Origin: a bacterium HR16
GTDB taxonomy: Bacteria; Armatimonadota; HRBIN16
DNA: 64,000 nucleotides
Direction: 5' to 3'
Assembly (NCBI GenBank): GCA_002898895.1
Contig: BEHS01000001.1
Span: 7,106 to 71,105 of the forward strand
Part shown: positions 4,870 through 46,592 of the stretch, in pieces
Layout of the letters: the number at the start of each line of letters is the position of its first letter
How positions within the stretch are numbered: position 1 is the stretch's first letter
Notes under the pieces: model-generated
Database searches by the model: none
Seen by the model: only the letters and a program-made list of their open reading frames with translations
Told to the model about the DNA's origin: nothing
Program-made: the position numbers and the translations under genes

Positions 4870-4902
4870 CCCGTGACGTGCCGATCCTGAGGTGTCTCAT
4901 GT

Positions 4903-5036
4903 GAAGGGCGAGCCTCCCGGTGAGCCAGAACGCCCCACCTGACCTCCCTGCACGCGGGGAGGAGTATGGATATTGTCTCCCTGCAAGCAGGGGGACGAGA
5001 GGGGTGGCTAACGGCTCGGCAGGAGTCTCGCCCTCC
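4903..5036. repeat. MITE-like composite hairpin element (family-2 terminal inverted repeats GGAGGGCGAGGCTCC..CCGAGCC)
   Basis: GAAGGGCGAGCCTCCCGGTGAGCC at the left end and its inverted complement CGGCTCGGCAGGAGTCTCGCCCTCC at the right end. Related copies at 31974-32110 and 39647-39773. Confidence 0.6.
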
Positions 5037-5045
5037 GAATGTTTG

Positions 5046-5071
5046 TCCTGGAGGATCGTGCTCCGTCGCGA
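5046..5071. repeat. family-3 short hairpin repeat (GGAGGATCGTGCTCCGTCGCGACC)
   Basis: Near-identical copies at 39780-39803, 61875-61897 and 61915-61937, and inverted at 23657-23681. Confidence 0.5.
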
Positions 5072-5082
5072 CCAAAAACAGA

Positions 5083-5292
5083 CTACTCTTGCTTTTTCTC
5101 CCCCGGTGCCTGCACGATAACCGGCCCCATGCCCTGATACTGCTTATGGGTGCCGTCGCAGAAGGGGAACTTGCTGGATTTGAAACATCGACACAGCGCT
5201 ACCCGTTCACCGGGCTCCAGCTCTACGACCGTACGTGGTCGTCCTTCAATCTCCTCTGTAGAGTGCTTCGCCATAGCTGTACTCCTCACCAT
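5083..5292 (-). CDS. CDGSH iron-sulfur domain protein (mitoNEET-like zinc finger)
   Basis: Canonical CRCFKSSKFPFCDGTH motif. Confidence 0.8.
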   Translation of the reverse strand: MVRSTAMAKHSTEEIEGRPRTVVELEPGERVALCRCFKSSKFPFCDGTHKQYQGMGPVIVQAPGEKKQE

Positions 5293-12349: not shown

Positions 12350-12363
12350 GAGTTCACCACATG

Positions 12364-12388
12364 GAGGGCGAGGCTCCGTCCGAGCCGA
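12364..12388. repeat. family-2 hairpin repeat (GGAGGGCGAGGCTCCGTCCGAGCCG), solo copy
   Basis: Same 25-mer at 46616-46640 and inverted at 62025-62052. GGCTC/GAGCC stem. Confidence 0.55.
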
Positions 12389-15027: not shown

Positions 15028-17064
15028 ATGTCTCGTGTTCCTCGTTTGGTCGCGGGTCTACTGAGCTGGGCGTTTATCGTGTTTGTTGTTGCTCCCGCGC
15101 TCGCACAGATTAACTACCCCAACTTCAGCTCCTCAGCGGGGCTGAATCTGGTAGGCAACGCGCAGGTCACGGCGAACAGGCTCCGCCTCACCGAGAACCG
15201 TATGAGTCAGCAAGGGGCTGCGTGGTACGCCACCAAGCAGAACCTGACGAATGGCTTCTCGACCACCTTCCAGTTCCAGTTGCATGGGCCGTCCCCTGAG
15301 GATGGTCTGGGCTACGGATTGGGGTTCCACATTCAGAACGTCTCGGCGACCCTGAACGTCAATGAGACGGGCACTACCGGAACCGTCACCGTGAGCTTCG
15401 CCACCTTCTACCAGACGCCGGAGGGCGACTTCCCCAACGTAGTAGCGGTTTACGTGAACGGCACGCTGACAGGCGCCACCAGCCTCTTCCCCAACACCAT
15501 TAACATCAATGACGAAGGCGTGCACACCGCACGCATTGACTACGCAGGGGGCTGGCTGACCGTCTCCGTGGACAACGAAGCGGTGCTTTCGCTGGCTGTT
15601 GACCTCGCAGCCGCCGGCGCGATCGATAGCTCCGGCGCTGCATGGGTAGGCTTCAGCGGACGCACGGTATACGCTTACGAGAACACCGATGTGCTCAACT
15701 GGACGCTGACTCCGTTCATCTCGCCCGCCCGCACGTTGATTATTCTGGGCGACAACCCGTATGAGGGAGCAAACGTCACCGTATCGCCCACCGACCTGGT
15801 AAACACGGGCGACGGAGTGACCCCCTTCGTGCGCGTGTATCCTGCAGGTACACCCGTTACGTTGAACGCAGCAACCCTCGCGCCTGATGGCAACGAGTTC
15901 GAGAAATGGCAGATTGACGGCGTCGACTACTCCGGCGACCCCGAACTGCAGATAACGCTGGATGACAACCACATCGTGACGGCGGTGTACGAGTCCACCA
16001 AAGCCCCTGTGTGGGATACCGGCGCGCCGAAGACGGTCATCTTCAACAACCAGGAAGTGTACCTGGGCTACGTCTCCGGCAACTATTCAGCGACGCTACC
16101 CCAGCGGTGGTCCGCCATTCCCTTCCGTATCCCGACAGGCGGTGCGCTCGTCAGCCAGGTAGATGCGGACTGGTTCGTGGTGGATGGCTATCAGGGCGCG
16201 AACGTACGCTACATCATCTGGCGACGTACCGGCTTGAACCGACCGGTGGATGGAGACCAGGTGGCGCAGGGCGTGCTGGGTGCATACTCCGCAGGCATGG
16301 ACGACCCACGCGTCCCGGGTGGCGAGGACTGGCTGCACCGCTACTCTAACCTGAACATCCTCCTGCCGGAGGGCGATTACTACCTGACCATCTACGCGGA
16401 CGGCATCGGAGCCGGAAACACAACCGGTTTTAACGCGCTTGCGTGGCTGACCGGTGCCGACCTGCAGCCCTCAGAGGTGGAGCAGGACTTCATGTGGCGG
16501 TCGCGTTACTTCCCCAACCCCGGCTTCGAAGTGTACGCGCCAAACGCTATCCAGCCCAAAGCAGGACAAGACCCGAAGGACCGCTGGAACTGCGCCTTTG
16601 TGCTGTACGGCAAGCTGGCGGTCATTCGTGGAAACGTGGCGCTGGGCGACTACGGCGGCGACCCCTCGCTGGTTCCCATCTCCGTGCGCCTGCGTAAAGA
16701 GGGCGGCGGCGAGGAGACCCGCACCGTCTTCACCGACCGCAACGGCAACTACTCGCTGTGGGTAGAGCCGGGCACCTACGAGGTTTCCTTCAAAGCCAGC
16801 CACTGGCTGCGCGTGAATCTGACGGATGTCACGCTTGGACTGGCGGAAGAGGTCACCGGACAGAATGCCACGCTGACCAACGGCGACATCGACGGCGACA
16901 ACGAGGTCACGCTGTTCGACTTCGGTGGACTGGTGGCAGCGTTTGGCTCGATGCCCGGCGATAGCAACTGGAACCCCGATGCCGATCTGGACGGAGATTT
17001 AGAGGTCACCCTGTTCGACTTCGGCATCCTGGTTCGCAATTTCGGCGCGATTGGAGACGAGTAA
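15028..17064 (+). CDS. secreted protein: legume(L)-type lectin-like domain, carboxypeptidase-regulatory-like domain and C-terminal dockerin-like double repeat
   Basis: Signal peptide. N-terminal lectin-like segment. C-terminus TLTNGDIDGDNEVTLFDFGGLV...DADLDGDLEVTLFDFGILVRNFGAIGDE, near-identical to the C-terminus of the 35417-36916 product. Confidence 0.6.
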   Translation: MSRVPRLVAGLLSWAFIVFVVAPALAQINYPNFSSSAGLNLVGNAQVTANRLRLTENRMSQQGAAWYATKQNLTNGFSTTFQFQLHGPSPEDGLGYGLGFHIQNVSATLNVNETGTTGTVTVSFATFYQTPEGDFPNVVAVYVNGTLTGATSLFPNTININDEGVHTARIDYAGGWLTVSVDNEAVLSLAVDLAAAGAIDSSGAAWVGFSGRTVYAYENTDVLNWTLTPFISPARTLIILGDNPYEGANVTVSPTDLVNTGDGVTPFVRVYPAGTPVTLNAATLAPDGNEFEKWQIDGVDYSGDPELQITLDDNHIVTAVYESTKAPVWDTGAPKTVIFNNQEVYLGYVSGNYSATLPQRWSAIPFRIPTGGALVSQVDADWFVVDGYQGANVRYIIWRRTGLNRPVDGDQVAQGVLGAYSAGMDDPRVPGGEDWLHRYSNLNILLPEGDYYLTIYADGIGAGNTTGFNALAWLTGADLQPSEVEQDFMWRSRYFPNPGFEVYAPNAIQPKAGQDPKDRWNCAFVLYGKLAVIRGNVALGDYGGDPSLVPISVRLRKEGGGEETRTVFTDRNGNYSLWVEPGTYEVSFKASHWLRVNLTDVTLGLAEEVTGQNATLTNGDIDGDNEVTLFDFGGLVAAFGSMPGDSNWNPDADLDGDLEVTLFDFGILVRNFGAIGDE

Positions 17065-17067
17065 CCC

Positions 17068-18045
17068 TCATCCCCGTGCCCCCTCTCCCGAAGCTTCAGG
17101 AGAGGGGGCTACACCTGCGCTGGCAATCAGCGTGCGTGGGGGGATAAAAGCGATGTCCTCCCGGGCGGTCTCCAGTGTCTGCACGGGAACATGCTCATGC
17201 CCCTTCAGCAGTTCACCGATGATTGCCTCCACCGAGCTTTCCGGCGTGGAGGCGCCACTCGTGATACCCACCGAGCGGTAGTCGGTGCGCCATTCGGGAA
17301 GCACCTCTTCGGGCTCCAGCAGCAGGTATGCGGGCACACCCGCCTCCTGTGCCACCTCGCGAAGCCGGTTGGAATTACTGCTGGAGCGGCTGCCGATGAC
17401 CAGTATCAGGTCGCATACCTTCGCCAGCTCCTTCACCGCGTTCTGGCGGTTGGTGGTCGCGTAGCAGATGTCCTCTTTGGGAGGCGTTTCGAGGTGCGGG
17501 AAACGTCGTCTCAGCACCGCCATGATACGCTCCACCTCGTATACGCTCAGGGTGGTCTGCGTGGCAACCGCAAGTTTGCCGTCCGGTACCTGCACGCGCT
17601 CGGCATCCTCTACCGTCTGCACCAGCGTGATTTGCCCGGGTGCGTGTCCCATCGTGCCTAAGGCTTCTACGTGTCCGGCGTGTCCGATGTAAATAATGTG
17701 GTAGTCCTGCGAAGCGAAACGCTGTACCTCGCGGTGCACCTTGGAGACCAGGGGACAGGTAGCATCGATTACCCGCAGGTTGCGCTCCGCCGCCGCCTGT
17801 CGCACTGCGGGCGACACACCATGTGCGCTGAAGACCACCGTCGAGCCCGGCGGGATTTCCGATACCTCTTCCACAAAGATAACCCCGCGTCGCTCGAACG
17901 AGTGCACCACATGCTCGTTATGTACAATCGCGTGGCGCATGTATATCGGTGTGCCGTACGCCTTAATCGCCAGGTCCAGTACTTCTATCGCGTACGACAC
18001 GCCGGCGCAAAACCCGCGCGGCGAAGCCAGAACGATACGCTCCAT
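17068..18045 (-). CDS. ispH: 4-hydroxy-3-methylbut-2-enyl diphosphate reductase IspH/LytB
   Basis: SPRGFCAGV, ATCPLV and conserved Cys ligands. About 15-residue C-terminal tail (SPEASGEGARG) encoded by the hairpin. Confidence 0.9.
   Translation of the reverse strand: MERIVLASPRGFCAGVSYAIEVLDLAIKAYGTPIYMRHAIVHNEHVVHSFERRGVIFVEEVSEIPPGSTVVFSAHGVSPAVRQAAAERNLRVIDATCPLVSKVHREVQRFASQDYHIIYIGHAGHVEALGTMGHAPGQITLVQTVEDAERVQVPDGKLAVATQTTLSVYEVERIMAVLRRRFPHLETPPKEDICYATTNRQNAVKELAKVCDLILVIGSRSSSNSNRLREVAQEAGVPAYLLLEPEEVLPEWRTDYRSVGITSGASTPESSVEAIIGELLKGHEHVPVQTLETAREDIAFIPPRTLIASAGVAPSPEASGEGARG
17080..17107. terminator. GC-rich hairpin (CCCCTCTCC-N10-GGAGAGGGG) between convergent genes
   Basis: Perfect 9-bp stem. 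The same CCCCTCTCCC...GGGAGAGGGG hairpin follows the paralogous dockerin gene at 36928-36956. No U-tract. Confidence 0.4.
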
Positions 18046-18104
18046 TGCGTCCTTTCCCTTTGCTCTATGTTTACTCTGGGCGAATGCGCATTGCCGTCCA
18101 TTTT

Positions 18105-18245
18105 GTTATGCTGAACGAAGTGAAGCATCTCCGAGATTCTTCGCTTCGCTCAGAATGACAACCTTTTACTGTCGTGCTGAGCGTCAGCGAAGCATCTCAG
18201 CGTGACGATAAAACGAGATTCTTCGCTCCCCCTCAGAATGACAGG
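18105..18245. repeat. family-1 hairpin repeats (GTCATTCTGAGCGAAGCGAAGAATCTC paired with GAGATGCTTCGCT..CTCAGCATGAC), two units
   Basis: Imperfect inverted 27-nt arms. Further clusters at 22157-22294, 23423-23603, 38174-38250 and 46481-46592. Confidence 0.65.
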
Positions 18246-18398
18246 GAAATTAAACCCGTCATCCTCTACACACTTCACCCGCTGATACTCAGATTGTACC
18301 TCAATCAATACTTTTTGGTGAGCAATATTTGCGCATTCTTAAACCTCGATGTATAATGGAAATGCTTCAAGCACGCAACCTTACTGGTGGGGGAAAGC

Positions 18399-19049
18399 AT
18401 GGCTATCGCAGCAGCGCATCGTACATCGGTCATTGCAGCCGACAATCATATCCTGCACAGGCTGCACTCGTTGTCCGGTATTGTGCCTGTTGGTATCTTT
18501 CTGGTTCAGCATTTGACGCTCAACTCCTTCGCGCTCGCCAGTCCTGCGCACTACAACGCGGTGATTGACTTCTTCAACGAGACGATGCCCCGCCATCTGT
18601 TGCATATCCTGGAATGGGGCTTCATCTTTATCCCCATCTTGTTCCACGCGCTGTATGGGCTGGTAATCACCGCGCATGGACAGGTGAACGTGGGACGGTA
18701 CGGCTACTGGCGCAACTGGATGTACCTGTGGCAACGCATCACGGGTATCATCCTGGTCATCTACATCGCGGCGCACGTATGGGGCACCACCATTAGCCAC
18801 CGGCTATACGGTACGAACCTCCACTACGACGGTATGGTTCAGTATTTTGGCAACCCATGGGTGGTGGCTTTCTACCTGCTGGGAATTACCTCTGCAACTT
18901 TCCACCTGTCCAACGGCATCTGGAACTTCTGCATTCGCTGGGGCATTACCATCAGCGAGCGGGCGCAGCGCGGGTGTGCGAAGGTGTGTGCGGTCATTTT
19001 TGTGCTGTTGACCGCGCTGGGGTGGTCGGCACTGTTCGCATTTCGCTAA
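18399..19049 (+). CDS. sdhC: succinate dehydrogenase / fumarate reductase cytochrome b subunit
   Basis: Five predicted TM helices with conserved His. RBS GGTGGGGGAAAG. Upstream of sdhA and sdhB. Confidence 0.8.
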   Translation: MAIAAAHRTSVIAADNHILHRLHSLSGIVPVGIFLVQHLTLNSFALASPAHYNAVIDFFNETMPRHLLHILEWGFIFIPILFHALYGLVITAHGQVNVGRYGYWRNWMYLWQRITGIILVIYIAAHVWGTTISHRLYGTNLHYDGMVQYFGNPWVVAFYLLGITSATFHLSNGIWNFCIRWGITISERAQRGCAKVCAVIFVLLTALGWSALFAFR

Positions 19050-19070
19050 AGGCTTAAGAGGTGATACTCG

Positions 19071-20960
19071 ATGGCAAAGCAACGTGCAATCGTCGTCGGC
19101 GGCGGGCTTGCCGGACTGATGACGGTCATCAAAATCGCCGAGCAAGGGCTGCCGGTAGACCTGTTTTCGCTGGTTCCGGTGAAGCGCAGTCACTCGGTGT
19201 GCGCGCAGGGAGGCATTAACGGCGCAGTAAATACCAAAGGTGAGGGCGATAGCCCCGAAGAGCATTTTGACGACACCGTTTACGGCGGCGACTTCCTCGC
19301 GCACCAGCCTCCTGTCAAAAGCATGTGCTACCGCGCTCCGGGCATTATCTACCTGCTCGACCGCATGGGCGTGCCCTTTAACCGCACACCGGAGGGCTTT
19401 CTGGACTTCCGTCGCTTCGGAGGAACCAAACACCACCGTACCGCCTTCGCCGGCTCTACCACCGGTCAGCAACTGCTGTACGCGCTGGACGAGCAGGTGC
19501 GTCGCTTTGAGGTGGAAGGGTTGGTTAATAAGTACGAAGGCTGGGAGTTTCTGGGCATCGTGCGCGATGAGGAGGGCAGGTGCCGGGGCATCGTGGCGCA
19601 GAACCTGCACACGATGGAGATTCGCGCCTTCCGTGCGGATGCGGTGGTGATGGCGACAGGTGGACCGGGATACCTCTTCGGTAAGTCCACCAACTCCATC
19701 ATCAACACCGGTTCCGCAGCGAGCATCTGCTATCAGCAGGGGGCGTACTACGCGAACGGCGAGTTTATCCAGGTGCACCCGACCGCCATTCCGGGCGAGG
19801 ACAAGCTGCGCCTGATGTCGGAGGCGATTCGCGGCGAGGGCGGACGTGTCTGGGTACCCAAAGACCCTTACGACAAGCGACCGCCTCGCGAAATCCCTGA
19901 GAGCGACCGCTGGTACTTCCTGGAAGAGAAGTATCCCGCATACGGCAACCTGGTGCCGCGCGACATCGCCACGCGGGAGATATTCGAAGTGTGCGTTACC
20001 CAGAAGCGTGGCATCATGGGACGCAACGAGGTGTATCTGGACATCACGCACCTGCCTCGTGACCTGATAGAGCGCAAACTGCTGGGCATCATCGAAATCT
20101 ACACCAAGTTTGTGGGCGATGACCCGCGCGAGGTGCCGATGCGGGTGTTCCCGGCAGTGCACTACTCGATGGGCGGACTGTGGGTGGACTATGAGCGCAC
20201 GCCTGACGGCTTCCTGCACCCCGAGAGCACGCGCAATCAGATGACCAACATCCCCGGTCTCTACGCAGCGGGCGAATGCGAGTATCAGTATCACGGCGCG
20301 AACCGCCTGGGCGCGAACGCCCTGCTATCGTGCATCTTCGGCGGTGAGGTGGCGGGCAACGCGGTGGTGCGCTATGTGCAGGGGTTGGAGAGCTCCGCCG
20401 ATAGCCTGCCGGCATCGCTGTATGAGAGCGAACGCCAGCGCCATGAGCAGGACTATCAGCAGCTGCTGAAGATGACCGGCGACGAGAACCCGTACAAACT
20501 GCATCAGGAGCTGGGCGAGTGGATGACCGACAACGTCACCGTGGTGCGCTATAACGACCGGCTCCAGAAGACCGAAGAGAAGATACTGGAGCTGATGGAG
20601 CGGTGGAAGCGCATCAACATCAACGACTCGTCGCTGTGGACGAATCAGATTGTGCCGTTTACCCGCGCCCTGCGCAATATGCTGATACTGGCGCAGGTGA
20701 TTACGCGCGGCGCGTTGTTGCGCAACGAGAGCCGGGGTGCCCATTACAAACCCGAGTATCCCGAACGCAACGATGCGGAATGGCTCAAGACCACGATGGC
20801 CAGCTACACGCCTGACGGTCCGCACATCTTCTATGAACCGGTGGATACCTCGCTGATTCCGCCGCGCATCCGCAAGTACGACGTGGACAAGAAAGTGACC
20901 ATCACTACCGCAGCCCAACCCGCCGAACTTGTCGGCGTAAAGGATGATAAGGGAGAATAG
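19071..20960 (+). CDS. sdhA: succinate dehydrogenase / fumarate reductase flavoprotein subunit
   Basis: FAD-binding GGGLAG fold, SHSVCAQGGING and HYSMGG motifs. Confidence 0.95.
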   Translation: MAKQRAIVVGGGLAGLMTVIKIAEQGLPVDLFSLVPVKRSHSVCAQGGINGAVNTKGEGDSPEEHFDDTVYGGDFLAHQPPVKSMCYRAPGIIYLLDRMGVPFNRTPEGFLDFRRFGGTKHHRTAFAGSTTGQQLLYALDEQVRRFEVEGLVNKYEGWEFLGIVRDEEGRCRGIVAQNLHTMEIRAFRADAVVMATGGPGYLFGKSTNSIINTGSAASICYQQGAYYANGEFIQVHPTAIPGEDKLRLMSEAIRGEGGRVWVPKDPYDKRPPREIPESDRWYFLEEKYPAYGNLVPRDIATREIFEVCVTQKRGIMGRNEVYLDITHLPRDLIERKLLGIIEIYTKFVGDDPREVPMRVFPAVHYSMGGLWVDYERTPDGFLHPESTRNQMTNIPGLYAAGECEYQYHGANRLGANALLSCIFGGEVAGNAVVRYVQGLESSADSLPASLYESERQRHEQDYQQLLKMTGDENPYKLHQELGEWMTDNVTVVRYNDRLQKTEEKILELMERWKRININDSSLWTNQIVPFTRALRNMLILAQVITRGALLRNESRGAHYKPEYPERNDAEWLKTTMASYTPDGPHIFYEPVDTSLIPPRIRKYDVDKKVTITTAAQPAELVGVKDDKGE

Positions 20961-20963
20961 CGT

Positions 20964-21734
20964 ATGGACGGCATCCAGAGCGTGGTACTGAAGATAAAGC
21001 GACAGGCGAACCCCCAGAGCTCACCCTACTGGGAAGAGTTCGAGGTGCCCTACACGCCTCGCATGAACATCATCTTCTGCCTGATGCAGATTCAGCGCAA
21101 CCCGGTCAACCGTCAAGGGAAACCTACCACCGCCCCAGCATGGGAAGCCGCCTGTCTGGAAGAGGTATGTGGTACCTGCACGATGGTGATTAACGGCAGG
21201 GTACGCCAGGCTTGTTCTACGCTGGTGGACGAGGTGGGTAAGCGGGCCGGTGAACATCTCGAAATCACCCTGGAGCCCATGACCAAATTCCCTGTGGTGC
21301 GAGACTTAATCGTAGACCGCAGCGAGATGTTCGAAACGCTCAAGCGCATTCGGGCATGGGTTCCTATCGATGGCACACATGACCTGGGACCCGGTCCGCG
21401 CATTCCCGACAGCATCCGCGAGCTGCGCTACGAGTTCGCCCGGTGCATGACCTGCGGCTGTTGCCTGGAAGCCTGCCCGAACGTGAATTCACACTCTGGC
21501 TTCATCGGTCCCGCTGCGCTGGGACAGGTGAGATTGTTCAATCTGCACCCGGTGGGGGCTACTCTGGAAGATGAGCGGTTTGACGTGCTGGCAGGACCCG
21601 ATGGGTTGACCGGTTGTGGCAACGCCCAGAACTGCGTGCAGGTCTGTCCGAAAGAGATTCCATTGACCCGTGCCATCGCCGAGCTGAACCGCGACATCAC
21701 CATTAACCGGCTGCGCAAATGGTTGGCGAAGTAA
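20964..21734 (+). CDS. sdhB: succinate dehydrogenase / fumarate reductase iron-sulfur subunit
   Basis: 2Fe-2S and CxxCxxCxxxCP 4Fe-4S/3Fe-4S cysteine clusters. Confidence 0.9.
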   Translation: MDGIQSVVLKIKRQANPQSSPYWEEFEVPYTPRMNIIFCLMQIQRNPVNRQGKPTTAPAWEAACLEEVCGTCTMVINGRVRQACSTLVDEVGKRAGEHLEITLEPMTKFPVVRDLIVDRSEMFETLKRIRAWVPIDGTHDLGPGPRIPDSIRELRYEFARCMTCGCCLEACPNVNSHSGFIGPAALGQVRLFNLHPVGATLEDERFDVLAGPDGLTGCGNAQNCVQVCPKEIPLTRAIAELNRDITINRLRKWLAK

Positions 21735-21736
21735 AC

Positions 21737-22063
21737 ATGCAAGCGGGGGGAATACAGGAAGATCCCCCCGCTTCTATTACCCACCAGGAGTTCTATACCG
21801 CCACCGACGGCAGTCAGTGGCTGATGGAGGTTGCTGTACAGTGGTCTCCGTATTTTGAGAGCCATGTGCGCTTGCTGAAAATGCCGGACCGTGCCCCTGT
21901 CTATCTTCCCTCGAATCTACCCTATCTGGATGTGGTTCCCCAGAACATCCGCGAAGCGGCACTGGACGGTCGCTTTGACCTGCAGGCGATCACGCGCTAT
22001 TGCTTGCAACGTTGCCTCGTCATGCTACGGGAGTACGTGGAACGCTTCGGTAACACCCTGTAA
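21737..22063 (+). CDS. hypothetical protein
   Basis: ORF immediately after sdhB. No recognisable motifs. Confidence 0.35.
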   Translation: MQAGGIQEDPPASITHQEFYTATDGSQWLMEVAVQWSPYFESHVRLLKMPDRAPVYLPSNLPYLDVVPQNIREAALDGRFDLQAITRYCLQRCLVMLREYVERFGNTL

Positions 22064-22156
22064 GTAAACTGTCCATCTTCCGATAATATAAGATGTCGTG
22101 CCGAAGCGACCGCTGGGTGTTTGTAGCGTTACACCTGTGGTGCGGCAGAATCTATC

Positions 22157-22294
22157 TTGTCATGCTGAGCGTTGGCGAAGCATCTCGCTCTTTTTGTCAT
22201 GCTGAACGCAGTGAAGCATCCCGGAGATTCTTCGCTCCGCTCAGAATGACAGGGAAACCAGCCCATCGTGCCATGCTGAGCGAGGCATCTCATT
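22157..22294. repeat. family-1 hairpin repeat cluster (four arms)
   Basis: TTGTCATGCTGAGCG..GAAGCATCTC and GAGATTCTTCGCTCCGCTCAGAATGACAGG. Confidence 0.6.
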
Positions 22295-22307
22295 ATCTCG
22301 ATCGGGA

Positions 22308-23408
22308 ATGGGAAGTCTAATGAAAACCGCTATTGCAACTCAATCTCGCGTGCTGGTTGTGGACGACGAGCCGCTGGTGGTTGAAGCCATCGAGCGTACC
22401 CTGCGCTCGTACGGCTATGCGGTTAGCACAGCGTACAGTGGTCAGGAAGCCTTGCAGGTACTGGCGCAACAGCGAGTGGATTTATGCTTGTCAGACCTGC
22501 ATATGCCCGGCATCGGAGGCAAAATGCTCGCCAGGCAGGTGCGCCAGCAGTATCCTGAAATCCCGATTGTTATCATGACCGGAGATGATTCGGTCGAGGT
22601 GCTACGCGAGGTGCTTGATAGCGGAGCCAGTGACTTCATCACCAAGCCGTGGCGCGCGCACGAACTGCCCATCGTGATAGAGCGCAACATCCGCCGCCAC
22701 AGTATCTGGATGGAGGAGCAGAAGCTGTATCTACGCAAACTGAACGAAGCGTATTCCGACATGCTGGAGGCGCTGTTGAGTGCGCTCGAGACACGTGAGC
22801 GAGAGATAGAGGGACACTGCGAGCGCGTCACCACCTACACGATGATACTTGCCGAAGCCATGGGCGTTCCACACCAGCAGCATCCCAACATCGAGCGCGG
22901 TGCCTTATTACACGACGTGGGCAAAATCGGCATCCCCGACAGCATTCTCTTCAAAAACGGTCCGCTGAACGCCGCCGAGTGGGAAATTATGCGCCAGCAC
23001 CCCGTTATCGGATATCGAATGTGTATGAAGGTGCGTTCTCTGCAAGACGCGGCGCGCGAGGTGGTACTGTGCCACCACGAGCAGTGGGACGGTAACGGTT
23101 ATCCCCAGGGTTTGCGCGGCGAGGAGATTCCGCTCGGCGCACGCATCTTCGCCGTCGCGGACGCGCTTGATGCCATGACCTCCGACCGTCCCTATCGCAA
23201 GGCTCTCTCTCTGGAGGAGGCGTCCGCCGAACTGGAGAGATGCGCGGGCACGCAGTTCGACCCTCAGGTGGTCAAAGCGTTTCTCAGCATTCCCGCCGGT
23301 GTGTGGGAGATGGTGATACAAAACCTTCAAGCCACATCCAGAACGAGCGCGCCGGACGATGACATTTTCTCCCTCCCCGCTCAGGAACCGCTGAGAAAGG
23401 CAGCGTAG
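22308..23408 (+). CDS. response regulator with HD-GYP domain (probable c-di-GMP phosphodiesterase)
   Basis: N-terminal REC domain (LVVDDEP...DLCLSDLHMPG). HD-GYP motifs (HDVGKIGIP, HHEQWDGNGYP). Alternative start at 22320. Confidence 0.85.
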   Translation: MGSLMKTAIATQSRVLVVDDEPLVVEAIERTLRSYGYAVSTAYSGQEALQVLAQQRVDLCLSDLHMPGIGGKMLARQVRQQYPEIPIVIMTGDDSVEVLREVLDSGASDFITKPWRAHELPIVIERNIRRHSIWMEEQKLYLRKLNEAYSDMLEALLSALETREREIEGHCERVTTYTMILAEAMGVPHQQHPNIERGALLHDVGKIGIPDSILFKNGPLNAAEWEIMRQHPVIGYRMCMKVRSLQDAAREVVLCHHEQWDGNGYPQGLRGEEIPLGARIFAVADALDAMTSDRPYRKALSLEEASAELERCAGTQFDPQVVKAFLSIPAGVWEMVIQNLQATSRTSAPDDDIFSLPAQEPLRKAA

Positions 23409-23422
23409 TAATCCACCATTTC

Positions 23423-23603
23423 CCTGTCATTCTGAGCGCAAGCGAAGAATCTCGCTCCATCGCCACAAAAAGATGCTTCGCTCACGCTCAGCATGACAGT
23501 AAACGGTTGTCATTCTGAGCGAAGCGAAGAATCTCCAAGATGCTTCACTTCGTTCAGCATGACAAAAAGGCGGGATGCCGAGCGTCAGCGGAGCATGACA
23601 AAA
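23423..23603. repeat. family-1 hairpin repeat cluster (five arms)
   Basis: CCTGTCATTCTGAGCGCAAGCGAAGAATCTCGC ... GATGCTTCACTTCGTTCAGCATGACAAA. Confidence 0.6.
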
Positions 23604-23623
23604 AACACGCCGAACCTGCTTGG

Positions 23624-23720
23624 GAGGGTGAGGCTCCTGCCGAGCCGTTCGATTTCGGTCGCGACGGAGCGCGATCCCTCCAATCCAGTTGCGGGGAGGG
23701 CGAGGCTCTTGCCGAGCCGA
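23624..23720. repeat. family-2 / family-3 / family-2 composite hairpin repeats
   Basis: GGGAGGGTGAGGCTCCTGCCGAGCCG, inverted GGTCGCGACGGAGCGCGATCCCTCC, then GGGGAGGGCGAGGCTCTTGCCGAGCCG. Confidence 0.55.
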
Positions 23721-23772
23721 TTTCGCCTGAAGCCGTTCCCCTGCAGACGAAGCCAGCCTGCGCTGGCTGTGT

Positions 23773-23801
23773 AACCCTGCGAAGGCAGGGTTTGGTTTGA
23801 A
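23773..23801 (+). terminator. hairpin AACCCTGC-GAAG-GCAGGGTT followed by TTTGGTTTG
   Basis: 8-bp stem with GNRA-like loop and T-rich tail in the convergent intergenic region. Confidence 0.35.
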
Positions 23802-23883
23802 GAGGTGCGGCTTCAGCTGCAGGTTTGGTGCGCGATGTGCAGCTTGCGATAGATGCGTTGAACATTCCGTGCGCACCCACGGA

Positions 23884-25344
23884 TTACCTGCTCACCAGAC
23901 TAAGCTGCACCTGCAGCTGGCGTTGCTGGTAGCTCCACAGAATGCGTGGCTGGATGCAGTGCGCCGGTAGCGATAAAGCAACCTGCCAGTCGCGCCAGCG
24001 GTGGTGTTCGATATCCCATATCCCGAGAACGTCCACGCCCCAGCGTTCGGTCAGGCGTAAACGGAAGCGTGCCTCTCTTCGCGTCTCCAGCCGGTCGAAT
24101 ACAAACGGGCTATTACCCCTTGTGGCGGCAAGGGCTAATCCCGCTCCCATCTGTGCGCCTTCTCCCGCATTCCAGTAAACGCCCCACTGCGCCCGCACCC
24201 AGCCGTACATCTCAGAGCCGGAGTACGCGCCCGCTCTCGCCTCCAGAACAATATCAGAGCCAACCTGCCTGCCTATCTCCAGCGTCCGGGATTGCCAGCG
24301 CAGCAGAGCAAGCGCACGACTGGCGGTAACCAGAGTGGGGCTTTCCTGCAGTCGCCCCAGCTTCCACTCTGTTTCCAGCAATCCGCCGCCCACGGGGTGA
24401 ACGGTCTGGTAACCCAGTTCCGCACCGCGCAAATAAAGGTCGGTGCGCTGGAGATTCTCCACTGGTGAATTCGCCTGCACAGAGAGGAACGCACCTTGCT
24501 TCATCTCTCTGTCCAGCGATGTACGCCAGCTGTAAGTGCCGATAGTCTCCAGAAAAGACACTCCGGGTCGCTCGGTGGGTTCCAGACGACGCAGGGGTTC
24601 TTGGTCACCGGCACGGTCCAGCCTGCGCAGCAGGTCCACTCGTATCTCGGGGTCATGTCGGGTGAATACCCGCAACCTGTAGCGCACCTGTCCCCACCTC
24701 TGCGGCAGCAGGTCGCCATAGTACACCATCAGCCCGCGCCGGCGCGAATAGCCTATCTGCGGTAACAGCGGTTCGCCCGGCTCGCGCCTGCCGATCCGCC
24801 GGCTCAGGTACGGCACGGTGACCCACCGATGCCCCCACGCCGACAGTGACACCTGGCGGGCACGCAGCCGCAAAGCAGGGCTCAGACTCAGGCTGCGCGC
24901 GGACAGCAGGAAATCGGGGGTCTGCTTGTCGCAGGTGGTCAGCGTCACCTCTTGCATGGTCAACATGCTGCCATCGGAGCGCAGCGACTCGGCGGTGATG
25001 AAGATGCCCTCTATCTCACCGCGGACATCGGACAGGTCGCCTTCGCGTGTCTTTAAATTAAAGCGCATCTGCGAGGCGCGAAGCGTTCCACGCTCATCTG
25101 CTAAGAACACATCGCCTGTGGCTGTAATCCAGCCGCTCTCCATATCGCCCTCGATGCGCTGCGCCCGCACACGCCGGCTGCCCCACTGCACCTCGGCATC
25201 CCCTTCCGCAGTGAAATGGCGGAACTGCTGAGCCTCTACACGACGCGCCAGCAGTCGCCATGCGTCGTCTTCCGAGGGGGAGGGAGCTGACCTTGCACCG
25301 CTGACCAGCATCCCCAGCAAGAGCAGCACGGCAAACCGGCACAT
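23884..25344 (-). CDS. LptD/OstA-like outer-membrane protein (LPS-assembly related)
   Basis: Signal peptide MCRFAVLLLLGMLVSGARSA. OstA-like N-terminal beta-jellyroll signature (AEGDAEVQWG...ATGDVFLAD...TLTTCD). Adjacent to gmhB. Alternative upstream start at 25383 would overlap gmhB. Confidence 0.5.
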   Translation of the reverse strand: MCRFAVLLLLGMLVSGARSAPSPSEDDAWRLLARRVEAQQFRHFTAEGDAEVQWGSRRVRAQRIEGDMESGWITATGDVFLADERGTLRASQMRFNLKTREGDLSDVRGEIEGIFITAESLRSDGSMLTMQEVTLTTCDKQTPDFLLSARSLSLSPALRLRARQVSLSAWGHRWVTVPYLSRRIGRREPGEPLLPQIGYSRRRGLMVYYGDLLPQRWGQVRYRLRVFTRHDPEIRVDLLRRLDRAGDQEPLRRLEPTERPGVSFLETIGTYSWRTSLDREMKQGAFLSVQANSPVENLQRTDLYLRGAELGYQTVHPVGGGLLETEWKLGRLQESPTLVTASRALALLRWQSRTLEIGRQVGSDIVLEARAGAYSGSEMYGWVRAQWGVYWNAGEGAQMGAGLALAATRGNSPFVFDRLETRREARFRLRLTERWGVDVLGIWDIEHHRWRDWQVALSLPAHCIQPRILWSYQQRQLQVQLSLVSR

Positions 25345-31961: not shown

Positions 31962-31973
31962 CACATCCGCGTG

Positions 31974-32110
31974 GAGGGCGCACCTGCCGGCAAGCCGGTT
32001 TAGCCCCCACCCCAGCCCTTCCCGCGAGCGGTGAGGGAGCGGTTCCTCCCCCGTCCACGGGGGAGGTCAGGAGGGGGCTTCACACGGCTCGGCAGGAGCC
32101 TCGCCCTCCA
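31974..32110. repeat. MITE-like composite element (137 bp) with about 25-bp terminal inverted repeats and central CCTCCCCC-GTCCAC-GGGGGAGG hairpin
   Basis: About 85% identical to 39647-39773. TIR GGAGGGCGCACCTGCCGGCAAGCCG / CGGCTCGGCAGGAGCCTCGCCCTCC. Confidence 0.65.
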
Positions 32111-32117
32111 TGCGGGC

Positions 32118-35416: not shown

Positions 35417-36916
35417 ATGGTTCGCCTATCAACCCTTTACGTTTTCGCCTGCGCGTTCTCCTTCGCGCTGAGCCTCTCTGCCGTCCACGCTCAGTATACC
35501 ATCACCGACCTGGGCGCGATCACCGCTAACGGGCAAAGCCGCGGCTACGGCATCAACAACCTCGGCGAAGTCGCCGGATGGTCGGATGGACACGCCTTCT
35601 TCTGGACAGGCGGTGTGCTCATAGACCTCGGCGTGCTGTCGGGTACCGCCAGCGAAGGGCGCGATGTCAACGACCTCGCACAGGTGGTCGGCTGGAGCGA
35701 TGCCGCACAGGCGCGCCATCCCTTTATCTGGAAAGACCTCAACGGCAACCGCCTCGCCGACCCGGGCGAGATGGTGGACCTGCGTCCCATCCCCAATACC
35801 TGGCAGGGCAGAGCGTACGGCATCAACAACGCCGGGCACGTGGTAGGGTGGTCTGCTATCAACCCCGATGGGGTGTACCACGCCTTCCGCTGGAGTTACA
35901 ACACAGGCGGCTGGTGGGACTGGTTTGACCTCGGCAACATCACCGGCAATCCCGACGAAATCAGCCTCGCTAACGACATCAACAACCTCGGACAGGTGGT
36001 GGGAGGCTCCGGCTCGGCGGGCAGCCGACGCGCTTTCCGTACACAACCCTACGCCGCTATCAACCCGCTCACCGATGCCCTGCCCTATCTGCCCAACGGC
36101 ACAACCGCCGAAGCCTTCGGCATTAACGACCGGGGTCAGGTAGTGGGCTTCTCCAACACGCGCGTGGGAACCAGCACCCTCACCCGTCCCGTACTGTGGG
36201 AGGGCAGTTCTGTTATCGATCTGGGCACACTGGGAGGCAATATCGGACGCGCGTACGGCATTAACAACCTCGGGCACGTCGTGGGACACTCCTATCTGTC
36301 GGACAACATCTCCTTACGCGCCTTCCTGTGGGTGAACGGTGTGCTTCGCGACCTCAACGACCTCCTGCCGCCAGGTTCCGGCTGGGTGCTCAACGAGGCG
36401 CGCGCCATCAACAACTTCGGACAGATTACCGGCTACGGCGCACACAACGGCATTACTCGCGCGTTCCTGATGACACCTGTGCCTACCACCGTCACCGTAA
36501 ATCTGGACGGCTACACGGGCGATTACTCCAGATTGCCCCTGCAGGTGGAGGTGCGCTCGACAACAGGGGAGACTCTGCTTACGTTCAGCCCAGCACTGAA
36601 CGCCGACGGTACGTTTCCCCTCACCCTCACGCCGACGACCTATACCCTCGCCTTCAAGGCAGACCGCTCCCTGCGCCGCGTGCTGACAGGCATCACCGTG
36701 CCGGCGGGAACCCTGGCGGTGAACCTCGTCAACGGCGACGCCGACGGCGATAACGAGGTCAGCCTGTTCGATTTCGGTAAACTGGTCGGCGCGTTCGGTA
36801 AGCTGGATGGAGAGGAGGGCTTTGAACCCACCGCCGACTTCGACGGCGACGGCGAAATCAGCCTGTTCGATTTCGGCATCCTGGTGCGTAACTTCGGGGA
36901 AGTAGGAGATGAATAA
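35417..36916 (+). CDS. secreted HAF-family repeat protein with C-terminal carboxypeptidase-regulatory-like and dockerin-like domains
   Basis: Signal peptide. Six or more GINNxGxVVGWS HAF repeats. C-terminus NGDADGDNEVSLFDFGKLV...DFDGDGEISLFDFGILVRNFGEVGDE paralogous to the 15028-17064 C-terminus. Confidence 0.7.
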   Translation: MVRLSTLYVFACAFSFALSLSAVHAQYTITDLGAITANGQSRGYGINNLGEVAGWSDGHAFFWTGGVLIDLGVLSGTASEGRDVNDLAQVVGWSDAAQARHPFIWKDLNGNRLADPGEMVDLRPIPNTWQGRAYGINNAGHVVGWSAINPDGVYHAFRWSYNTGGWWDWFDLGNITGNPDEISLANDINNLGQVVGGSGSAGSRRAFRTQPYAAINPLTDALPYLPNGTTAEAFGINDRGQVVGFSNTRVGTSTLTRPVLWEGSSVIDLGTLGGNIGRAYGINNLGHVVGHSYLSDNISLRAFLWVNGVLRDLNDLLPPGSGWVLNEARAINNFGQITGYGAHNGITRAFLMTPVPTTVTVNLDGYTGDYSRLPLQVEVRSTTGETLLTFSPALNADGTFPLTLTPTTYTLAFKADRSLRRVLTGITVPAGTLAVNLVNGDADGDNEVSLFDFGKLVGAFGKLDGEEGFEPTADFDGDGEISLFDFGILVRNFGEVGDE

Positions 36917-36927
36917 CTGACTGAACG

Positions 36928-37935: not shown

Positions 37936-38244
37936 TCACCACTCCTGTACTTGCTTGATGATGTGTTCACGTATCGCTTCTTCGATGGCGTAAACGAGCG
38001 CAACGTCCACCTTCAACCTGTCCGCTAACCTCTCTCTCGTAGCCTGCGGTAACCGTAGCGCCCGCTCTTCCAGCCATCGCAGTACCAGCTGTTTCAGAAC
38101 TCTCTTCACCGTTGTCTCTCCTGATAGTCTGTCAGGTGTGATTCTCGTGGCTGTGGCGAGGCGGTCTTGCCTTGCTGTCATTCTGAGCGAAGCGAAGAAT
38201 CTCGTGTTATCGCCACTCCGAGGTGCTTCGCTGATGCTCAGCAT
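37936..38244 (-). CDS. hypothetical phage-module protein (N-terminal part of ORF overlaps a family-1 repeat, so true start probably internal)
   Basis: First about 30 codons are the translated family-1 repeat (SISEAPRSGDNTRFFASLRMT). Likely starts near VKRVLKQLV. Confidence 0.25.
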   Translation of the reverse strand: MLSISEAPRSGDNTRFFASLRMTARQDRLATATRITPDRLSGETTVKRVLKQLVLRWLEERALRLPQATRERLADRLKVDVALVYAIEEAIREHIIKQVQEW

Positions 38245-38250
38245 GACAAG
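38174..38250. repeat. family-1 hairpin repeat unit
   Basis: GCTGTCATTCTGAGCGAAGCGAAGAATCTCG ... AGGTGCTTCGCTGATGCTCAGCATGACAAG. Confidence 0.6.
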
Positions 38251-39621: not shown

Positions 39622-39646
39622 GATGCACCTCCTCTGCCCCCTGTCT

Positions 39647-39773
39647 GGAGGGCGAACCTGCCGGTGAGCCGATTTAGCCCCCACCGCGCGCAGGGAGAGA
39701 GCGGTTCCTCCCCCGTCCACGGGGGAGGTCAGGAGGGGATATTTCGTACGGCTCGGCGGGAGCCTCGCCCTCC
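39647..39773. repeat. MITE-like composite element (second near-identical copy)
   Basis: About 85% identity to 31974-32110 including TIRs and the central GGGGGAGG hairpin. Followed by a family-3 repeat at 39780-39803. Confidence 0.65.
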
Positions 39774-39835
39774 CCCATTGGAGGGTCGTGCTCCGTCGCG
39801 ACCACAAACGCACCCGACAGGTTCACCGCGAATCG

Positions 39836-40762
39836 CTAGCTCGCGTTACTGCCGTAAGCAGTCTGCCACAAACCGTAGCCCACGCCGTAACGCGCTCGCG
39901 CGCCGTAATACACCACGTCCCGCAGGAACACACTCTCGCTCACCGACGGGTCCTCCAATGCCGAGAACTCCACCGGCACATCCGACCGCTCCTGCAGAAT
40001 CACCGCACGCACCGCCCGGCTGGTGTCCAGCACAAACCACTGATTGCCTGTGATATACGGGCTGACCACCAGCCTCAGCGCACCTTGCAGCACGTTGCGA
40101 TACGGTGTGTTGTCACCCGTGCCCGCTTTGACCACCACCACCTGCGACTCCAGCAGCTCCATCGCCGCCCAGCGCAGGCGTGGACCCACCAGCAACGTAT
40201 CCGGCAGGATGCCCAGCGGCACGCCCTGATCGTCCTTGAACAGCATCATGCTGGAGATAGCGCTCTGCAGGCTGTCGGGATTCAGCGGTTGGGTGGTGAC
40301 GTTGCTCTGTGTGCCGCTCTCGCCCTCCGAGTGTGCGCTGGAGAAGAGCGGTTGACCGTCGTAGCACGTCTGGCTGAACCCGTCCAGTAACGCTTTCACC
40401 ACCAGATAGTCCTTGTGCCGTGCCGCCTCGCGCCCCAAATCCTGCACCCGCAGTCGGATGGCTCCAATCTGTTCGTCCTCCAGAGCGCGTCTCTCTACCG
40501 CTATTGTGCTCTCCCACACCGTGTCCTGAATGGTGTAGTTATATGCCCGTAAGCCCTTCGGCATGCGCTCGTCCACAAACTCGCGCATCGCAGGCACACT
40601 GCCCAGCCACCCGTACTTCTGCACAGGCAGCTCGGTCTGAATCACCGTTGCAATCTGCGGATAAATCGCCGACTCCACCTGCCGTCGATACGCCTCAAAA
40701 AAGTCTGCACGCAAACCCGCCTCCAGCAAGGCGCCCATTTCGCTCCGTGTAATCGCTGGCAT
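39836..40762 (-). CDS. Mu-like prophage major head subunit (gpT family)
   Basis: Length about 305 aa and conserved gpT-like blocks (YPQIATVIQTELPVQKYGWLG..., QGVPLGILPDTLLVGP, NQWFVLD). Confidence 0.7.
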   Translation of the reverse strand: MPAITRSEMGALLEAGLRADFFEAYRRQVESAIYPQIATVIQTELPVQKYGWLGSVPAMREFVDERMPKGLRAYNYTIQDTVWESTIAVERRALEDEQIGAIRLRVQDLGREAARHKDYLVVKALLDGFSQTCYDGQPLFSSAHSEGESGTQSNVTTQPLNPDSLQSAISSMMLFKDDQGVPLGILPDTLLVGPRLRWAAMELLESQVVVVKAGTGDNTPYRNVLQGALRLVVSPYITGNQWFVLDTSRAVRAVILQERSDVPVEFSALEDPSVSESVFLRDVVYYGARARYGVGYGLWQTAYGSNAS

Positions 40763-40776
40763 TGTCTCTCCTCCTC

Positions 40777-41190
40777 TTACCGCACCGCGTTATCGATACG
40801 AATGCGTGCTTGCGTCGCCGAAAGCACCTCCACCACGTAACCCACCAGCTGGTTGTTGGTGGAAGTGGTGGTCAGCGTGTTGTCGTCCGCTGCGTACATC
40901 GCCTGCCCCACGCTTGCCTGCGTGAAGCCGCTCCCGTTATACACGTAAGTGCCACTCTTCCACACGCGCACCGACCTCGCGCCCGCCGCACCGCCTGTGT
41001 TGTCCACACCTTCAAACGCTACTCCCACGAACACATCGCTGCTTGTGCCGCTGCGCGATGGGTAGGCGTAACCGTCACTGCGCACGCTCACCAGCGCACC
41101 TTTGTAAATCACCGTGTTCGCGCCCACCTTGTAACTCACCAGCTCGCCCGGCTTGTCCTGTGGGTCGTACGCGCTCGTCAACGCTGCCAT
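40777..41190 (-). CDS. phage head decoration/cement-like protein (DUF2190-like)
   Basis: Gly/Ala-rich 137-aa protein directly upstream of the major head gene. Typical GALV..G..Y motif pattern. Confidence 0.4.
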   Translation of the reverse strand: MAALTSAYDPQDKPGELVSYKVGANTVIYKGALVSVRSDGYAYPSRSGTSSDVFVGVAFEGVDNTGGAAGARSVRVWKSGTYVYNGSGFTQASVGQAMYAADDNTLTTTSTNNQLVGYVVEVLSATQARIRIDNAVR

Positions 41191-41193
41191 CTC

Positions 41194-42978: not shown

Positions 42979-42985
42979 CCTATCG

Positions 42986-46480: not shown

Positions 46481-46592
46481 CTTGTCATTCTGAGCGAAGC
46501 GAAGAATCTCGTTGTATCGCCACCCTGAGATGCTTCACTTCGTTCAGCATGACAACAAAATCCTGTCATTCTGAGCGAAGCGAAGAATCTCA
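46481..46592. repeat. family-1 hairpin repeat cluster (three arms)
   Basis: CTTGTCATTCTGAGCGAAGCGAAGAATCTCG / GAGATGCTTCACTTCGTTCAGCATGACAAC / CCTGTCATTCTGAGCGAAGCGAAGAATCTC. Confidence 0.6.

Follow-up and report, generated by a model that had tools for sequence, protein, structure and literature searches.

What are the short paired repeats that recur, several to a locus, between the genes of this 64-kb window (the whole stretch of DNA that was analysed), and are they selected as RNA or as DNA? The preliminary description placed them in five clusters of alternating arms, called them REP/BIME-like and read them as elements under selection at the RNA level. By both a fuzzy search and a covariance model, 16 arms of 28-30 nt were recovered in the window (E <= 0.003), all within five clusters, which the model places at 18103-18244, 22157-22252, 23424-23565, 38175-38249 and 46482-46591, which bears out the described clusters. 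With one mismatch allowed, there are 6 copies of the 27-mer GTCATTCTGAGCGAAGCGAAGAATCTC, whereas dinucleotide shuffles yield none. Two decayed remnants of arms adjoin clusters 2 and 3 (Table 1). All 16 arms are intergenic, though coding sequence makes up 87.5% of the window.

The arms fall into three subtypes in the window, which we call T (TGTCATTCTGAGCGAAGCGAAGAATCTC), G-short (TGTCATGCTGAACGAAGTGAAGCATCTC) and G-long (TGTCATGCTGAGCGTCAGCGAAGCATCTC). What had been described as arm A is the T type (ATTCT/AGAAT), and arm B is the G type (ATGCT/AGCAT). The described alternation of the two holds as well, since T and G arms are always in opposite orientation. Within a unit they lie tail-to-tail on opposite strands, tags outward, with either 1 nt or a conserved spacer of 16 nt (GTNNTATCGCCAC) between them, and this layout puts one site on each DNA strand. 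All 7 units in the window are T+G heterodimers, and neighbouring units are connected by linkers of 8-9 nt. Clusters 1 and 3 share a 153-nt composite in inverted orientation, with 88% matching. When the spacer and the composite were sought in all fetched loci, only the arm itself matched. The window arms are gene-less copies, gathered in BIME-like heterodimer clusters in five intergenic regions. The label REP/BIME-like suits this architecture of tagged hairpins, alternating orientation, defined linkers and intergenic clusters; the RNA-level selection that was put behind the label is not supported.

Table 1. Repeat arms, spacer, decayed remnants and composites in the window (bit scores and E-values from the covariance model, CM)
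Feature	Position	Strand	Remarks
G-short arm, tag decayed to TGTT, TTGTTATGCTGAACGAAGTGAAGCATCTC	18103..18131	+	right partner in U1b; CM 39.7 bits, E 6.8e-8
T arm, exact 27-mer	18133..18161	-	short unit U1b with 18103-18131, 1-nt spacer; 47.8 bits
G-long arm CTGTCGTGCTGAGCGTCAGCGAAGCATCTC	18169..18198	+	long unit U1a, partner 18215-18244; 27.2 bits, E 1e-4
Conserved 16-nt spacer of long unit U1a, reverse complement GTTTTATCGTCACGCT, consensus GTNNTATCGCCAC	18199..18214	-	sequence comparison
T arm, altered loop, GAGGGGGAGCGA	18215..18244	-	U1a; 33.6 bits
G-long arm without T partner	22157..22186	+	36.8 bits
G-short arm	22194..22222	+	unit U2 with 22224-22252; 42.4 bits
T arm, 1 mismatch, loop CGGAG	22224..22252	-	U2; 47.1 bits
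Decayed, shortened G-type remnant CCATGCTGAGCGAGGCATCTC	22268..22291	+	weak: 12.2 bits, E 0.76
T arm, loop CGCAAGC	23424..23453	+	left arm, long unit U3a; 38.6 bits
G-long arm	23470..23499	-	right arm of U3a, past 16-nt spacer 23454-23469; 34.4 bits
T arm, exact	23507..23535	+	left arm, short unit U3b; 47.8 bits
G-short arm	23537..23565	-	right arm of U3b; 42.2 bits
Decayed arm remnant	23572..23601	-	weak: 12.7 bits, E 0.58
153-nt composite (long unit, 9 nt, short unit)	18098..18250	-	inverted copy of 23418-23570; 88% complementary
153-nt composite, second copy	23418..23570	+	repeat search
T arm, exact	38175..38203	+	left arm, long unit U4; 47.9 bits
G-long arm, partly decayed, GAGCATCAGCGAAGCAC	38220..38249	-	right arm of U4; 21.8 bits, E 0.003
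T arm, exact	46482..46510	+	left arm of U5 (16-nt spacer); 47.8 bits
G-short arm	46527..46555	-	right arm of U5; 44.8 bits
T arm, exact, solo	46563..46591	+	47.9 bits

Why does the reading as RNA fail? It was based on the claim that the differences between paired arms would give G-U wobble pairs on one transcribed strand and A-C mismatches on the other. For each unit the T arm was aligned with its partner, and every non-complementary position was classified on both strands. Over the 7 units and their 38 non-complementary positions the asymmetry is inconsistent: 20 positions are of the transversion type (U.C/A.G, G.G/C.C), with no wobble on either strand, and of the 18 transition-type positions, 6 are G-U and 12 A-C when read on one strand, with the numbers exchanged on the other, and even single units mix the two. 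The differences that constantly separate T from G arms are compensatory pairs inside the arm and give no wobble between arms. When the units were folded as RNA in both orientations, the long arm-to-arm hairpins had similar energies on the two strands. The orientation relative to flanking transcription is mixed, with no consistent sense: cluster 1 separates ispH from sdhC, which are transcribed divergently, cluster 2 is antisense to the plus-strand gene on either side, clusters 3 and 5 are sense, past plus-strand genes, and cluster 4 is antisense, past a minus-strand gene. With the asymmetry inconsistent and the orientation mixed, the case made for selection on the RNA cannot be upheld.

The units might still be transcribed, with the long arm-to-arm hairpin stabilising an mRNA, terminating transcription or serving as a small RNA. 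Such a role would suit clusters that are all intergenic, three of them just past a stop codon, and long hairpins that are predicted to be stable as RNA (-25 to -43 kcal/mol); E. coli REPs have also been reported active in 3'UTRs. Against it stand not only the strand and orientation results but also the lack of an intrinsic-terminator feature, in that no T-run follows the hairpins and T-runs precede the G-short arms instead. Terminator-like and promoter-like sites in the window are at chance level relative to shuffled expectation. Rfam, searched with the whole window at the gathering threshold and with 18000-23900 by E-value, gave only chance miRNA/snoRNA-like matches and none for the repeats. 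What is more, relatives with the same genes are without arms, the covariation described below backs a hairpin within the arm, the two arms of a unit usually differ in stem type, and the Neisseria nuclease SsnA, to which we return, does not bind the RNA version of its site (PMC11893778). We consider a role of the units as RNA very improbable. A hammerhead-like reading of the motif CUGA...GAA was also tried and was dropped on inspection of the sequence, as the core positions misfit.

If the two arms of a unit are not primarily partners, what does one arm form alone? Each arm is its own independent hairpin module. In 5' to 3' order the arm consists of the TGTC tag, ATTCT, a tandem G.A, a GC-GAA-GC mini-hairpin, AGAAT and CTC, and the pairs are A4-T24, T5-A23, T6-A22, C7-G21, T8-A20, G9.A19, A10.G18, G11-C17 and C12-G16 around the loop GAA. 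The stem has 9 positions, two of them G.A, and the loop has 3 nt (5 with the closing C-G pair counted). The tag is TGTC in 15 of the 16 window arms and TGTT in the other, and the first base of the unpaired tail is C in all 16, the tail being CTC in 13, CTT in 2 and CCC in 1. The four positions at which T and G-short arms differ make up two base pairs of the hairpin, each changed on both sides: T6->G is compensated by A22->C, and G11->A by C17->T.

The same fold is reflected in arms from other genomes, which were detected without constraint on the variable stem positions. In a 75-sequence alignment, 6 of the 7 pairs show double-sided changes and 93.5% of cells are paired; compensatory cells number 81, compared with 19.6 +/- 5.3 in shuffles (0/500 reaching that number), and slid controls collapse, although Watson-Crick covariation of this kind cannot alone tell DNA from RNA hairpins. 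All four of four Watson-Crick pairs are kept in 156 of 172 unique arms (46 expected after partner shuffling), and these 172 arms show at least 12 stem types, for example TTCT/AGAA, TCCT/AGGA, CCCT/AGGG, TGCT/AGCA and TTCC/GGAA. Outside the stem, at positions also left unconstrained in detection, the base before GTC is H in 154 of 156 arms from other genomes, and the palindrome is followed by C in 154 and then by Y in 151 of the 156. The usual loop is C-GNA-G, and at the apex there are often longer, variable stem-loop insertions of 10-30 nt. At the loci of other genomes the two arms of one unit often differ in stem type, which favours the fold within an arm over pairing between arms.

Could the symmetric changes have arisen in double-stranded DNA instead? 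The arms might be dyad sites of a dimeric host protein, such as a nucleoid protein or a regulator, and the compensatory changes would then be symmetric half-sites. Each arm is indeed near-palindromic, and its changes are symmetric about the centre. However, the conserved centre is asymmetric as a duplex (GA...GA, not GA...TC), as are tag and tail, and the central stem-loop insertions of 10-30 nt would part the half-sites of a duplex site but keep the base of a hairpin. The homologous nuclease, moreover, does not bind dsDNA (PMC11893778). A duplex site of this sort seems to us very improbable.

A strand asymmetry does exist, but of another kind than the one first described. The G.A/A.G pairs and the GNA loop exist solely on the strand with the TGTC tag, so the arm module is predicted to be fully structured on the tag-bearing strand only. 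Standard nearest-neighbour DNA folding of a single arm gives weak energies (-1.9 to -4.3 kcal/mol, z about 0); the same folding of the Neisseria repeat NTS, discussed below, gives -9.2 kcal/mol and z -3.4. The predicted minimum-free-energy structure of the arm as DNA is nevertheless the covarying structure. It is known that d(GCGNAGC) mini-hairpins, and tandem sheared G.A pairs in the Y-GA-R context, are unusually stable in DNA. The weak computed energies of the arm count against the assignment made below; they can be attributed to nearest-neighbour parameters that miss the stability of sheared G.A pairs and GNA loops, a stability which we take from this background and not from our computation.

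How widely is the arm distributed, and is there any gene that goes with it? The exact 25-mer core of the arm occurs in at least 120 stretches of species-representative genomes from most bacterial phyla (more than 15). The hosts include Nitrospirota, Acidobacteriota, Chloroflexota, Bacteroidota, Planctomycetota, Verrucomicrobiota, Cyanobacteria, Firmicutes, CPR lineages, Helicobacter and others, and the core is also present in 19 IMG/VR contigs. In two of the loci found through the arm, arms bracket an ORF of about 95 aa that encodes a GIY-YIG protein, and in a third a truncated GIY-YIG copy lies about 340 nt from an arm. A protein search with this ORF gave 1281 homologs. Most of the best 120 of these read into an arm at their 3' end, with C-terminal tails of the RDSSLRSE* type in 56 and ...VSF* in many others, and some of the best 120 are read in from an arm at the 5' end.

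As an independent test, 80 metagenome loci were chosen by similarity of the GIY-YIG protein alone (54-86% identity) and then scanned for arms. An arm was found within 200 nt of the gene in 67 of the 80, about 85-fold above background. The density of arms falls from 5.35/kb in the first 200 nt from the gene to 0.97/kb between 200 and 500 nt and 0.06-0.07/kb farther away. Even among the 13 loci scored as negative, most have arms with longer apical insertions. In the loci of other genomes the spacers between arms range from 1 to more than 60 nt, solo arms and arms in the same orientation are common, and arms of different types can flank one GIY-YIG gene.

Which nuclease is this? The family is 48% identical (E 4e-18) to a 94-aa ORF of N. 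gonorrhoeae which has Y6, Y17 and E64 and is flanked by the canonical NTS CGTCATTCCCGCGCAGGCGGGAATCC. Its only sequence relative in PDB is UPF0213 BH0048 (entry 1ZG2, E 1e-5), and NCBIfam has no informative family for it. By its match to the N. gonorrhoeae ORF the arm-associated protein is a homolog of SsnA, the nuclease of the Ssn system described in 2025 (Chenal et al., Nat Commun, PMC11893778). In that system NTS (CGTCATTCCCGCGMAVGCGGGAATCYRG) and related SRM repeats flank ssnA, whose product is a 94-aa GIY-YIG protein of the cd10448 type, and Y6, Y17 and E64 are the residues that were mutated (PMC11893778). Neisseria SsnA binds the hairpin only as ssDNA and on one strand, and is inactive on dsDNA and RNA; its cut falls a few nucleotides upstream of the tag. 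The key bases are GTC, critical for cleavage, and the C after the palindrome, the main base in binding, while the loop is dispensable and extendable (PMC11893778). Through this system N. meningitidis restricts transforming ssDNA that enters the cell (PMC11893778). No ssnA gene was found within the 64-kb window, and three ssnA homologs from Logan that were looked up all come from samples other than that of the window. Literature searches on the arm sequence and its sub-words returned no relevant paper, and those on GIY-YIG with REP/MITE, or on COG2827/UPF0213/YhbQ, revealed no link to the arms.

We think it likely that the window arms are SRM/NTS-like repeats, that is, (C/T)GTC-tagged hairpins of the kind that flank ssnA in many bacteria. 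They are filed there because tag, tail, hairpin and association with ssnA match the determinants of NTS and SRM. An HGTC tag stands directly 5' of the palindrome, C and then Y follow directly after it, each arm is an inverted repeat within 20-50 nt whose hairpin starts with W-Y, and the arms flank ssnA homologs at 67 of the 80 loci. The tolerated apical insertions also agree with the reported dispensable, extendable loop. Under this assignment the repeats are a new example of a system published in 2025 and no new kind of element.

One difficulty should be noticed. The published SRM string, HGTCWYN(0-2)YYVSBRHN(0-5)WNVSBRGN(0-2)RNCYNB, matches none of the 16 window arms, and within 200 nt of the gene it occurs at none of the 80 ssnA-homolog loci, whereas the Neisseria NTS does match it. 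Note that the string is a search device made from 29 genomes and gives no functional definition (PMC11893778). We treat this failure as the mark of a distinct sequence class, here called G.A-type, and not of non-membership. A second point is less comfortable. In Neisseria, changing the palindrome while keeping the hairpin abolished activity (PMC11893778), and this sits uneasily with the free covariation of the stems and with mixed arm types at one gene.

Two other mobile-element readings share part of this evidence. Classical REP/REPIN repeats have the same architecture, in which tagged hairpins form spaced inverted dimers and these gather in BIME-like clusters; such repeats would be mobilised by a RAYT (an IS200/IS605-type tyrosine transposase) encoded elsewhere in the genome. 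But the arms have TGTC in place of the GTAG tag, CGTC/TGTC-tagged repeats were never found with tyrosine transposase genes (Di Nocera et al., PMC3733652), and the gene flanked in the 67 loci is a GIY-YIG nuclease and no Y1 transposase, which makes RAYT mobilisation extremely improbable. Alternatively, the units could be MITEs, non-autonomous derivatives of a DDE-type IS with the arms as terminal inverted repeats (TIRs): the arms are 28-bp inverted repeats that start with TG...CA around a short spacer, and the window carries a DDE_3 transposase gene of IS630-like type (44666-45487). Yet no arm lies at the ends of this IS630-like element, no arm-flanked transposase was found in the window, and no IS with arm TIRs, a DDE transposase and duplications was found in about 1.4 Mb of loci. 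The common solo and same-orientation arms and the spacers from 1 to more than 60 nt do not suit TIRs, and covariation within the arm is unexpected for double-stranded TIRs bound by a transposase. The associated gene, again, encodes a GIY-YIG nuclease of 94 aa. Target-site duplications were not observed, in a comparison where the intergenic regions of relatives are too diverged to place insertion boundaries. An origin as MITEs is accordingly a most improbable one in our judgement.

Are the SRM/NTS-like arms of the window old residents of their sites? The window SdhA is 71-74% identical to proteins from Armatimonadota/Fimbriimonadales MAGs and 89-93% identical to those of closer relatives. In seven syntenic loci of the closer relatives (ispH, sdhCAB, a hypothetical gene and a response regulator), no arm was found in 112 kb, and the corresponding intergenic regions are shorter (147 nt vs 341 nt in the window, and 40-87 nt vs 244 nt). 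The lack of arms at orthologous sites of close relatives indicates that the arms were recently gained or lost and are no conserved regulators of those genes. Short-read contigs of the same organism, which match the window exactly, break off inside arms of clusters 1 and 2, as is expected of an abundant repeat. In another part of the window, a Mu-like prophage remnant lies between clusters 4 and 5, together with a PIN gene and a methylase interrupted by the IS630-like element; the earlier remark that the repeats are found at the prophage remnant agrees with this position.

What might such sites do? Direct observation covers the anatomy of the arms with their strand-specific non-canonical core, their covariation, their grouping into heterodimers and clusters, their spread across phyla, the association with ssnA elsewhere and the turnover relative to relatives; from there a mechanism can be proposed by homology with Neisseria NTS/SsnA. 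When the tag strand becomes single-stranded, in replication, repair, transformation or conjugation, its hairpin would be bound by a putative Ssn nuclease, which would be encoded elsewhere in the genome. The bound enzyme would nick a few nucleotides 5' of the TGTC tag, and the nick may lead to fragmentation of incoming or exposed ssDNA or may seed the spread of the repeat. The consequences, which are speculative, could include restriction of site-bearing ssDNA, altered recombination around the flanked genes, and repeat spread. As to why the units are T+G heterodimers, they may persist since their mismatches lower the risk of instability that comes with a long palindrome, an idea of Di Nocera et al. 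(PMC3733652).

The assignment places an assembly-breaking repeat family of an uncultured Armatimonadota-like genome in Ssn/SRM, and a reading as sites of an ssDNA nuclease replaces that as RNA regulators. In annotation, the spurious ORFs made by the arms (peptides HSERSEES, FFASLRMT, DSSLRSE) can be masked. The published SRM string will miss the G.A-type class, present at 67 of the 80 sampled metagenome loci with an ssnA homolog. If cut by cognate Ssn enzymes, this class would add a recognition specificity to a family proposed as ssDNA tools. What remains of interest is the distinct hairpin design, the extreme conservation of the core across phyla and its absence from the published consensus. 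A bolder scenario can be drawn, which we find rather doubtful: the G.A-type arm would form a separate class of Ssn site, perhaps the most widespread one, structured on one strand through sheared G.A pairs and a GNA triloop, with a core that stays near-identical in more than 15 phyla even as nuclease identity drops to about 50%, and missed by the SRM consensus; the arm-ssnA-arm cassettes would be horizontally mobile, ssDNA-based elements, and the gene-less clusters would be their non-autonomous progeny, which might mark the borders of islands.

How do the arms compare with the systems known so far? They are closest to NTS/SRM, with which they share the HGTC tag, the A-T start of the hairpin, the C-Y tail, the tolerance of a variable loop, and a clustered, intergenic placement flanking a single-domain GIY-YIG gene of about 94 aa. 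They differ in the inner stem, which is a tandem G.A plus GC-GNA-GC in the arms and a fully paired CCCGC/GCGGG in NTS, in having a 25-mer common to most phyla which the SRM string does not match, and in the lack of ssnA in the window. The arms also appear, by their sequence features, to overlap the CGTC-tagged REPs of Di Nocera, De Gregorio and Rocco (BMC Genomics 2013, PMC3733652), which include Neisseria dRS3 and Rickettsia RPE-4/-6. In those repeats the tag is often TGTC, the stem starts with A-T/T-A, the tail is short, dimers are described as head-to-head, heterodimers are frequent, and tyrosine transposase genes are never associated (PMC3733652). Tag, A-T/T-A start, 3-nt tail, heterodimers, a mostly intergenic location and the absence of a transposase gene are thus common to both, while the CGTC-tagged REPs, known from 5 phyla, have perfect 8-9 bp stems, loops of 4-5 nt and a CCA-like tail (PMC3733652), and the arms have two G.A mismatches, a 3-nt loop, a CTC tail and a far wider range of hosts. 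The GTAG-tagged REP/BIME/REPIN-RAYT repeats are likewise short tagged hairpins, seen as ssDNA, in the studied cases, by the small nuclease that they flank, and they likewise occur as inverted dimers and in mosaic clusters whose members alternate in orientation and are joined by defined linkers. However, their tag is GTAG and not TGTC, their enzyme is of the HUH/Y1 and not the GIY-YIG type, and their sequences are lineage-specific, whereas the arm is near-identical across phyla. Finally, the subterminal hairpins of IS200/IS605 are also strand-specific ssDNA hairpins with non-canonical pairs, lying by a cleavage site that is set by flanking bases; the arms differ from them in having no Y1 transposase and no defined left and right ends, and in being paired on both strands.

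The 153-nt composite, in which a long arm unit, 9 nt and a short arm unit follow one another, is present in two inverted copies with a 5.2-kb segment between them. The arms are TGTC-tagged hairpin repeats of 28-30 nt. Has the segment been turned over between its two inverted borders? Besides sdhCAB it holds a small ORF and the gene of an HD-GYP response regulator, and the gene order is identical in relatives, thus no inversion is evident. Public Logan short-read contigs (L140 and L141; window 18198-22219) are identical to the window. Their ends fall within arm clusters 1 and 2, the first two of the five in the window, which indicates that the repeats break up assemblies from this organism.

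A whole block is enclosed by arm clusters 4 and 5. In it a Mu-like prophage remnant and a PIN-domain gene precede an N6/N4 DNA methylase-Mrr gene, which is apparently split by an IS630-like DDE_3 transposase. A further abundant repeat family was found by repeat search of the window, with the sequences GGAGGGCGAGGCTCC..CCGAGCCG and GGAGGGTCGTGCTCCGTCGCGACC; its copies at 23620-23719 and 46615-46641 directly adjoin arm clusters. One intergenic site, TGTCATGCTTACACATATCTGCATCTCC, is possibly a decayed solo arm of the G type. Paired dockerin-like GDxDGDxxVxLFDF repeats close two large ORFs, and the DNA of the two repeat ends is 61-74% alike. The positions of these features are listed in the table.

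Further features of the window
Feature	Position	Strand or orientation	Remarks
153-nt composite	18098-18250; 23418-23570	inverted to each other	
Further abundant repeat family	4902-5088; 12357-12387; 23620-23719; 31972-32115; 39646-39815; 46615-46641; 61870-62052	both	repeat search
Putative decayed solo G-type arm	55309-55336	+	intergenic; covariance model of the arm, 16.1 bits, E 0.08
ORFs closed by dockerin-like repeats	15028-17064; 35417-36916		
Dockerin-like repeat ends	16882-17065; 36734-36917		repeat search
Prophage remnant block	39836-46367		major head gpT, cement protein, protease I-like; then PIN-domain gene, then methylase gene
IS630-like DDE_3 transposase	44666-45487		apparently splits methylase gene
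Tandem 39-nt repeats	57797-58185		stretch without confident gene call; repeat search

In other genomes, many loci carry "stutters" of the arm, that is, 2-4 tandem copies of the 5' half only (TGTCATTCTGAG plus about 10 nt) directly upstream of a full arm, or, in an alternative form, 3' halves repeated downstream of it. Examples are Planktothrix agardhii plasmid p1 (L223, 18247-19716) and the loci L020, L123, L148 and L165. The stutters sit roughly at the reported cut position of the nuclease Ssn (PMC11893778). In several phyla arm dimers are enclosed by an additional outer inverted repeat (L036, L040, L044, L090, L111, L112, L138, L139), for example CAGGCTGCGGAAAAA...TTTTTCCGCAGCCTG in loci of Acidobacteriota type and of Saccharimonadales, or ATTGCAAAAC...GTTTTGCAAT in others. 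This nesting suggests that the elements are larger composites, or that hairpins already present were targets of insertion.

The Neisseria locus of ssnA, the gene of the GIY-YIG nuclease Ssn, was taken from the PLSDB records NZ_CP119142.1 and NZ_CP119140.1 of Neisseria gonorrhoeae (2.17 Mb each), which are labelled "plasmids" in that plasmid collection but are evidently chromosomes. In Planktothrix, the ssnA homolog and its arms (L223, 601-885) are located within a defence island, with an MmeI-type restriction-modification gene on one side and DISARM drmA on the other.
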